From the NCBI RefSeq assembly GCF_016903815.1, contig NZ_CP069973.1: a DNA stretch of 64,000 nt; one strand, written 5' to 3'. Positions 11,333-12,772 of the stretch are shown here, in pieces (the first letter of the stretch is position 1; each line of letters opens with the position of its first letter). The notes beneath the pieces are model-generated. The model made no database searches. It saw nothing but the letters and a program-made list of their open reading frames with translations, and had not been told where the DNA came from. This DNA comes from Escherichia coli. Lineage in GTDB: Bacteria; Pseudomonadota; Gammaproteobacteria; Enterobacterales; Enterobacteriaceae. The position numbers and the translations under genes were made by a program.

Positions 11333-12772
11333 TTGCGCCAGCACCACTTGCCTGCTTCGACCGCGGATATGGCTGCCGCTCATCTGCATGCGATGGCGCT
11401 GGCACAGTTGCGCGGACATAAACTACCGTTACGCACTGACTGGCTGGATGCCATAGCAGGCTCGCTGATTAAAGAAGCCCTGAACGCGCCGTTGCCGTGG
11501 AGCTATCGCGGCGTTATTCATCCCGACACCGATCCGATTCTGCTAACGTTGATAGACACATTAGCGGGTGACGGATTCGGTAAACTTGCCCCTTCTACGC
11601 CACAACCGCCTCTGCCAAAAGATGTCACCTGCGAACTGGAACGTACCGCAATCTCTCTTCCGGCGGAGCTTACCTTAAATCGCTTTAACCCCAATGGACT
11701 AGCGCAAAGTCAGGTGTTACATCGGCTGGCAATACTGGAGATCCCAGGGATTGTACGCCAGCAGGGAAGCACACTGACACTTGCAGGCAACGGTGAAGAA
11801 CAGTGGAAATTAACCCGCCCGCTTAGCCAGCATGCGGCATTGATTGAGGCCGCCTGCTTTGGTGCCACACTCCAGGAAGCCGCACGCCATAAATTAGAAG
11901 CCGATATGCTGGACGCGGGTGGAATCGGCAGTATCACCACATGTCTTAGCCAGGCGGCGTTAGCGGGTCTGGCGTCCTTCAGTCAACAATTATTGGAGCA
12001 ACTCACATTATTAATCGCCCAGGAAAATCAATTTGCCGAAATGGGCCAGGCGCTGGAAGTGCTATATGCCTTATGGCGGCTGGATGAAATTAGCGGTATG
12101 CAAGGCGCGCAGATATTACAAACGACGTTATGCGCGGCTATCGATCGCACGCTGTGGCTGTGTGAATCTAACGGCAGACCAGATGAAAAGGAGTTTCACG
12201 CTCACCTGCATAGCTGGCAGGCGCTTTGCCATATCCTGCGCGATCTACATAGCGGCGTTAATTTACCCGGCGTTTCTCTTTCTGCGGCGGTAGCCTTACT
12301 GGACCGCCGCAGTCAAGCGATTCATGCCCCGGCGCTGGATCGCGGCGCGGCTCTTGGCGCACTGATGCGTCTGGAACATCCCAACGCCAGTGCCGAAGCG
12401 GCGCTGACAATGCTGGCGCAGTTATCCCCGGCACAATCCGGCGAAGCGCTGCACGGTTTGCTGGCGCTGGCCCGCCATCAACTGGCCTGTCAGCCGGCAT
12501 TTATCGCCGGTTTCAGTAGTCATTTAAATCAACTGAGTGACGACGATTTTATTAACGCCCTGCCCGATTTACGCGCGGCGATGGCCTGGCTACCACCACG
12601 AGAACGCGGGACGCTGGCGCATCAGGTGCTTGAGCATTATCAACTGGCGCAACTTCCCGTTTCGGCACTGCAAATGCCGTTGCATTGTCCACCACAAGCC
12701 ATTGCACATCATCAACAACTCGAACAGCAGGCACTGGCATCGCTGCAACACTGGGGAGTTTTCCATGTCTGA
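11333..12772 (+). CDS. Ala/Leu-rich, predicted helical protein of unknown function; true start uncertain
   Basis: Long open frame in the same frame as the preceding CDS, separated from it only by one TGA. Track start at 11333 is a TTG; first in-frame ATG is at 11369. No Walker A motif. Stop overlaps the next gene's start. Confidence 0.55.
   Translation: MRQHHLPASTADMAAAHLHAMALAQLRGHKLPLRTDWLDAIAGSLIKEALNAPLPWSYRGVIHPDTDPILLTLIDTLAGDGFGKLAPSTPQPPLPKDVTCELERTAISLPAELTLNRFNPNGLAQSQVLHRLAILEIPGIVRQQGSTLTLAGNGEEQWKLTRPLSQHAALIEAACFGATLQEAARHKLEADMLDAGGIGSITTCLSQAALAGLASFSQQLLEQLTLLIAQENQFAEMGQALEVLYALWRLDEISGMQGAQILQTTLCAAIDRTLWLCESNGRPDEKEFHAHLHSWQALCHILRDLHSGVNLPGVSLSAAVALLDRRSQAIHAPALDRGAALGALMRLEHPNASAEAALTMLAQLSPAQSGEALHGLLALARHQLACQPAFIAGFSSHLNQLSDDDFINALPDLRAAMAWLPPRERGTLAHQVLEHYQLAQLPVSALQMPLHCPPQAIAHHQQLEQQALASLQHWGVFHV

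Follow-up and report, generated by a model that had tools for sequence, protein, structure and literature searches.

An open reading frame (ORF) of 479 codons lies directly upstream of the VWA gene yehP in the metG–yeh–btsSR–mlrA region of an Escherichia coli chromosome, and the locus raises the question of whether this ORF encodes an independent protein of unknown function, as the original prediction proposed. Our analysis of the window, i.e. the whole stretch of 64,000 nucleotides under study, answers that it does not, and assigns a probability of roughly 0.93 to the reading of the ORF as a dead yehM remnant, namely the untranslated tail of that gene (YehM residues 281-759), following a 4,003-bp deletion and a nonsense mutation at Trp262. 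It is thus a 5'-truncated, nonsense-interrupted gene fragment and a case of ordinary lineage-specific gene decay. The remnant is already known as such: on identical DNA, RefSeq/PGAP flags 11249-12772 as a pseudogene ('DUF5682 family protein; internal stop; incomplete; missing N-terminus'). The genes around it are metG, two or three DUF4132 genes, yehP, yehQ, yehR, yehS, btsRS, mlrA and yehWXY, and positions 9000-14000 are 100 % identical to several complete genomes, e.g. strain 222 (NZ_CP020516). The features on which the first part of the argument depends are the following:

11333-12772, plus strand: the ORF, from TTG 11333 to TGA 12772, 479 codons, equal to yehM codons 281-759 plus stop; a helical-solenoid fragment
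11564-11587, plus strand: the peptide AGDGFGKL, ORF residues 78-85 (YehM 358-365); not a P-loop
12765-13901, plus strand: yehP, VWA_CoxE protein of 378 aa, intact
13898-15898, plus strand: yehQ, SWIM zinc-finger protein of 666 aa, intact (SWIM match E = 7e-08), overlapping yehP by 4 nt

As an open frame the ORF is real, but its upstream boundary does not hold. The frame is open upstream of 11333 back to a TGA at 11276-11278, and past that stop the same frame runs to an ATG at 9080; TTG 11333, 55 nt beyond the TGA, is merely the first start-type codon after it and corresponds to the internal Leu281 of YehM, within a predicted helix (266-283). The enrichment in Leu (17.3 %), Ala (15.2 %) and Gln (7.7 %) that had been noticed in the product is confirmed, Leu and Ala exceeding their levels in the neighbouring proteins (11.9-13.3 % and 8.5-11.7 %, respectively). 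The HMM search that had been suggested as a check did return a family, Pfam DUF5682 (PF18934), with E = 1.8e-42 and 146.1 bits against a gathering score of 26, so that the ORF is far beyond chance, but the match is to the tail of a longer protein: it covers profile positions 276-695 of 727, compared with 1-695 for the 759-aa K-12 YehM. The full-length DUF5682 architecture is not present, the N-terminal GxRHHSPxC, (I/L)EGP and CGGxHxP motifs (residues 1-204) having been deleted, and neither is an intact frame with its own start, given the TGA at Trp262 and the internal position of TTG 11333. The glycine-rich AGDGFGKL stretch had rightly been denied the status of a Walker A motif: a regular-expression search for G/AxxxxGK[ST] finds none anywhere in the ORF, which is therefore not a P-loop NTPase by this test, and in the peptide itself the next residue is A instead of S/T and the required spacing is also missing. 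AGDGFGKL forms part of GDxxGxLAxxTPxPPL, the best-conserved DUF5682 motif in the surviving half, in which G359 and G363 are invariant across the family alignment and L365, T369, P370, P372, P373 and L374 are invariant or nearly so. The further claim that the product has no recognisable catalytic motif stands as far as Walker A is concerned, yet this lack is a consequence of the deletion, which removed a TIKI/TraB-like domain carrying invariant His and Glu residues.

The ancestral gene order in most E. coli is molR-yehI-yehK-yehL-yehM-yehP-yehQ, and a BLAST comparison with the K-12 locus (coordinates of L002) reveals that 4,003 bp of it are absent here. Window positions 5275-11258 align to K-12 2024-8008 at 93 % identity and comprise molR and the first ~727 codons of yehI, and positions 11248-17000 align to 12001-17751 at 96 %, comprising yehM from codon ~252 onwards. 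Four features describe the lesion:

9080-11278, plus strand: the 5' part of yehI, nine yehM codons and a TGA; ~727 yehI codons without DUF4132
11246-12772, plus strand: the whole yehM remnant, from the equivalent of codon 252 to the stop
11248-11258, strand not applicable: the deletion junction, 11 nt that align both to yehI (K-12 L002 up to 8008) and to yehM (L002 from 12001)
11276-11278, plus strand: in-frame TGA, a nonsense mutation of Trp262 (TGG to TGA) that ends the fused yehI'-'yehM frame

A three-way alignment places the imperfect microhomology ATGGyCTGCCCyGG at the crossover, where illegitimate recombination would have deleted the 4,003 bp. An octamer, GCTGGCAG, is also common to yehI and yehM and lies at window positions 11228-11235, ~20 nt upstream of the junction; it may have helped the recombination. 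Lost by the deletion were the 3' third of yehI including the DUF4132 domain (YehI residues 954-1138), all of yehK, all of yehL, which encodes a MoxR AAA+ ATPase (AAA_5), and the first ~252 codons of yehM. The event joined yehI codon ~727 to yehM codon ~252 in frame, by chance, and the yehI piece, likewise annotated as a pseudogene next to that of yehM, is labelled by PGAP 'hypothetical protein; incomplete; missing C-terminus'.

The second lesion lies nine codons past the junction, where a G>A change after the deletion would have turned the Trp262 codon into TGA and broken the fused frame. The same position is TGG in K-12 and in strain D1, the closest intact allele, and Trp262 is invariant in 41 homologues. 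Translation from ATG 9080 yields an ORF of 732 codons in the same frame as the remnant. Compared with strain D1, the remnant differs at 41 nucleotides, which fall in 25 synonymous and 11 non-synonymous codons, and it is free of frameshifts. The 25:11 ratio resembles that between intact alleles and the remnant is clean apart from the TGA, which, together with the lack of a frameshift, argues for recent decay. It has to be said that the undamaged state of the remnant and the intact yehP and yehQ genes downstream count against its being dead.

That both halves share one frame with a single stop between them, and that this stop is a UGA followed by C, could also mean that the UGA is recoded, being either read through by the near-cognate tRNA-Trp or decoded as selenocysteine to give a 1,230-aa YehI(1-727)-YehM(253-759) chimera with a new function. 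A UGA followed by C is a leaky stop context, and misreading of 11276-11278 by tRNA-Trp would restore the ancestral residue; besides, all 60 junction-bearing genomes listed keep the exact sequence. Nonetheless, we regard this explanation as highly improbable. Ancestrally, the position is a standard TGG codon for an invariant Trp, the chimera would be devoid of DUF4132, the TIKI-like domain and the ATPase partner, and the identity among the listed genomes reflects clonality, not selection. An Rfam scan of positions 9000-14000 retrieved no element and folding of the RNA that follows the UGA gave no significant structure (z = -1.2) and hence no SECIS-like hairpin, a result on which selenocysteine recoding was rejected.

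If the frame is indeed interrupted, ribosomes on the yehI' frame would stop at 11276-11278 and the ~1.5 kb from 11278 to yehP would be left untranslated. This bears on the junction with the VWA gene, where the original prediction had correctly placed a stop/start overlap: the TGA at 12770-12772 overlaps the yehP ATG (12765-12767) by 8 nt, 12765-12772 (ATGTCTGA). The overlap is ancestral, being found also in K-12, Serratia, Variovorax and a 29 %-identical metagenomic homologue. The fixed stoichiometry with the VWA protein that had been deduced from it, on the other hand, finds no support, because coupling needs ribosomes translating the upstream frame and these would have stopped ~1.5 kb before yehP. 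With that stretch untranslated, translational coupling could not operate, and yehP would have to rely on its own Shine-Dalgarno sequence (GGGGAG, 12753-12758). By the same reasoning, the fragment itself is probably not made in meaningful amounts.

Re-initiation downstream of the stop offers a way around this conclusion. Starting at TTG 11333 or at the next ATG, 11369, it would produce a ~470-aa solenoid that binds YehP and YehQ and feeds ribosomes to yehP via the 8-nt overlap, i.e. a truncated but functional scaffold. The structure prediction that had been called for lends this idea some appeal, since the fragment is predicted to fold well alone (pLDDT 90.9) as a HEAT/ARM-like helical solenoid, a superhelix of tandem helical hairpins with a small three-stranded sheet inserted at ORF residues 111-160; the expected alpha-helical scaffold is thus borne out by the model, although its supposed repetitiveness is not, self-BLASTP having found no internal sequence repeat in the product. 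The remnant without frameshifts, the intact yehP and yehQ and the preserved overlap and Shine-Dalgarno of yehP speak for a functional fragment as well. Against it, neither candidate start is preceded by a Shine-Dalgarno sequence and TTG 11333 sits 55 nt past the stop, neither the partner YehL nor the conserved TIKI-like domain is left, and the locus has decayed independently in other lineages (PMC12795559), which argues for relaxed selection. A promoter scan of 10800-13200 detected no promoter-like site and a single terminator-like hairpin (11493-11513), no more than would be expected by chance.

The homologues provide a further argument against a stand-alone fragment. We ran an exhaustive phmmer search with the 479-aa sequence against 1.84 billion cluster representatives and recovered 801 homologous ones, in nearly all of which ORF residue ~1-8 aligns at position ~240-350 of proteins of 700-840 aa. 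Two candidates for stand-alone C-terminal modules, P0135 and P0149, were discarded: both begin at most 71 nt from a contig end and the frame of P0149, whose DNA could be read, is open to that end, so that they look like truncated gene calls. A natural headless architecture was consequently found in none of the 801 homologue clusters, and we consider a functional scaffold very unlikely. Judged from the sequence, the remnant may still be subject to some residual use or expression by re-initiation or UGA-C readthrough, but nothing observed supports this. In its boldest form, this idea would have such a solenoid product bind YehP and YehQ in an ATPase-independent MoxR-VWA-SWIM-WGR/DUF4132 variant confined to a clonal lineage and, separately, intact YehM be a hydrolase of the TIKI fold that is tethered to a MoxR-VWA remodelling complex; it is an outside chance. 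An architecture of the latter kind is not described in the literature searched. The dead-remnant reading, in turn, carries a caution for ORF-based genome scanning: a long, clean and well-folding ORF coupled to a real gene can be a headless fragment.

It could be argued that the deletion or the nonsense codon is spurious and derives from assembly or sequencing errors. We found no evidence in support of such an artefact, and its probability is practically negligible. The junction recurs in 94 independently assembled genomes out of 5,426 complete ones of E. coli, and the 60 of these that were listed are all 100 % identical across the junction, TGA included, their sources being humans, dogs, cattle, birds and water. 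The lesion is therefore real and clonal, and the junction is usable as a clonal marker. One of the junction-bearing genomes is labelled O102:H6, presumably indicating the ST405 clone. In an ST131 sublineage, the blaCTX-M-15 transposon TnMB1860 has inserted into the metG/DUF4132/yeh region of the chromosome (PMC9334617); ST131 was accordingly considered for the junction lineage and dropped, the junction strains including O102:H6.

The decay of yehM in this lineage is one of several such events, as loss or breakage of the locus has recurred in E. coli and Shigella. In K-12, molR is frameshifted and yehQ carries a TAG at codon 615, which is GAG in the window; both genes are intact here and broken there, so different lineages break different genes of the same cassette. 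A further lineage that is widespread in E. coli (P0038, 613 member sequences; L006 6160-9527) has both yehL and yehM in two pieces, of 151 + 216 aa and 223 + 508 aa, respectively, and the 508-aa piece of yehM begins at Met252, almost exactly at the position of the junction in the window. A ~7-kb deletion has taken out yehL and yehM in Shigella sonnei lineages 2 and 3, and zorO and IS elements adjoin these two genes in this species (PMC12795559).

Other parts of the locus vary too. Intact molR occupies 5276-9070 on the plus strand of the window and encodes 1,264 aa with WGR and DUF4132 domains. Between metG and molR there is an extra, intact WGR+DUF4132 paralogue (1466-5263, plus strand, 1,265 aa) that K-12 does not have; among 5,426 complete E. 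coli genomes, 1,629 carry it at 80 % coverage or more, which means that the locus does not have a fixed number of DUF4132 paralogues. For the intergenic region between metG and this DUF4132 gene (window 1327-1465), it is relevant context that the molR promoter is activated by BglJ-RcsB in K-12 (PMC3950696). The yehK-yehL spacer measures ~1.24 kb in strain D1 (L007 2908-4146), with nothing annotated there, against ~0.3 kb in K-12. Both yehL and yehM are up-regulated in a K-12 hns/stpA mutant and adjoin an intergenic H-NS-bound region (PMC3686432); if this region is the yehK-yehL spacer, it would fall within the segment deleted here.

What the deletion removed is best appreciated from the intact protein. 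An AlphaFold model of K-12 YehM built on the 41-sequence alignment (pLDDT 82.8) consists of three parts: an alpha/beta domain (1-240), a mixed middle region and an all-helical region (447-753). On the evidence of structure models, the N-terminal 240 residues, deleted in the window, appear to adopt a fold of the TIKI/TraB/ChaN/Ere type, with the parallel beta-sheet core of that class present in ancestral YehM and not in the ORF. The DUF5682 alignment contains invariant G8xxH11, E35-G-P and C198-G-G-x-H202-x-P motifs plus conserved Arg/Glu residues, and from it H11, H202, E35, E143 or E176, and R163 or R175 emerge as invariant candidates for catalytic-type residues. Weak, sub-threshold Pfam matches (E = 0.06-0.16) to Cofac_haem_bdg ("Tiki superfamily, ChaN") were obtained for 3 of the 41 members and to Erythro_esterase for 1 of the 41. 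Other searches returned little: the PDB sequence search with YehM found nothing, that with the family profile matched nothing but ATP-synthase subunit b, at chance level (E ~ 0.1), Foldseek with the full-length model against PDB found generic solenoids only, with nothing below E = 0.02, and the N-terminal 251 aa, when scanned separately against Pfam, matched just DUF5682 and, by chance, CBM46. The PADLOC-DB 2.0 HMMs matched none of the fragment, YehM, YehL, YehK, YehP, YehQ, YehI, MolR or the extra paralogue; NCBIfam holds no family for the fragment or YehM and offered nothing useful for the cassette proteins, and a literature search on yehM/L/P/Q, DUF5682, DUF4132 and MoxR+SWIM+WGR found no functional study of YehM.

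The YehI/MolR-YehL-YehM-YehP-YehQ cassette is conserved from Enterobacterales to Burkholderiales. All three loci that we compared (Serratia fonticola, Variovorax and the 29 %-identical metagenomic homologue) display the order WGR+DUF4132, (small ORF), AAA_5, DUF5682, VWA_CoxE and a ~700-aa protein, which in E. coli is the SWIM protein. All genes of the 29 %-identical locus either overlap stop to start or abut; Serratia and Variovorax have overlaps at the DUF5682/VWA and VWA/last-gene junctions and short gaps before AAA_5 and DUF5682. Compared with this context, the window keeps the downstream VWA_CoxE gene and the overlap but has lost the upstream AAA_5 gene. On one metagenomic contig (L010 459-3827), DUF5682 and VWA_CoxE are fused into a single protein of 1,122 aa, and the usual ~650-aa protein comes next; the fusion may provide Rosetta-stone support for a YehM-YehP interaction or be a frameshift artefact. 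The E. coli "fusion" proteins P0001, P0003, P0005 and P0013, singletons with 97-100 % identity, were treated as assembly or frameshift artefacts.

It is tempting to speculate on how the intact system would work. YehL, the eponym of one of seven MoxR subfamilies (PMC3893208), and YehP would constitute a remodelling machine, with YehM as adaptor and effector, its solenoid docking to YehP, YehL and YehQ and its TIKI-type domain hydrolysing or binding a substrate, and the tight overlaps would help to make the proteins together. With both the YehL ATPase and YehM's TIKI-like N-terminal domain missing, this machine is probably disabled in the window. The parent family thus represents a modestly interesting uncharacterised system whose informative parts lie outside the window.

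Comparison with known proteins places the fragment closest to K-12 YehM (759 aa, PF18934), with which it shares 97 % amino-acid identity over residues 281-759 and a position directly upstream of yehP with the ATGTCTGA overlap, and from which it differs in that the first ~252 codons and the native start are gone, Trp262 is a stop and yehL is not upstream. The likeness of its solenoid to those of the TAF6 C-terminal domain, symplekin, importins and cohesin SA is generic to the HEAT/ARM fold class, sequence similarity and a detectable repeat being absent. In intact YehM, the GxxH motifs (G8-H11, G199-H202), Glu35 and the Arg/Glu residues recall the 2His/2Glu and basic-residue site of TIKI/TraB/ChaN/Ere proteins (PMC6254334), a putative spatial equivalence, whereas the TIKI-like domain is wholly missing from the ORF of the window. 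Like the MoxR AAA+/VWA pairs RavA-ViaA and CoxD-CoxE, the ancestral yeh operon pairs an AAA_5 MoxR ATPase (YehL) with a VWA_CoxE protein (YehP), and the window is left without the ATPase; unlike the Yeh system, however, those known pairs come without DUF5682, SWIM or WGR-DUF4132 partners.
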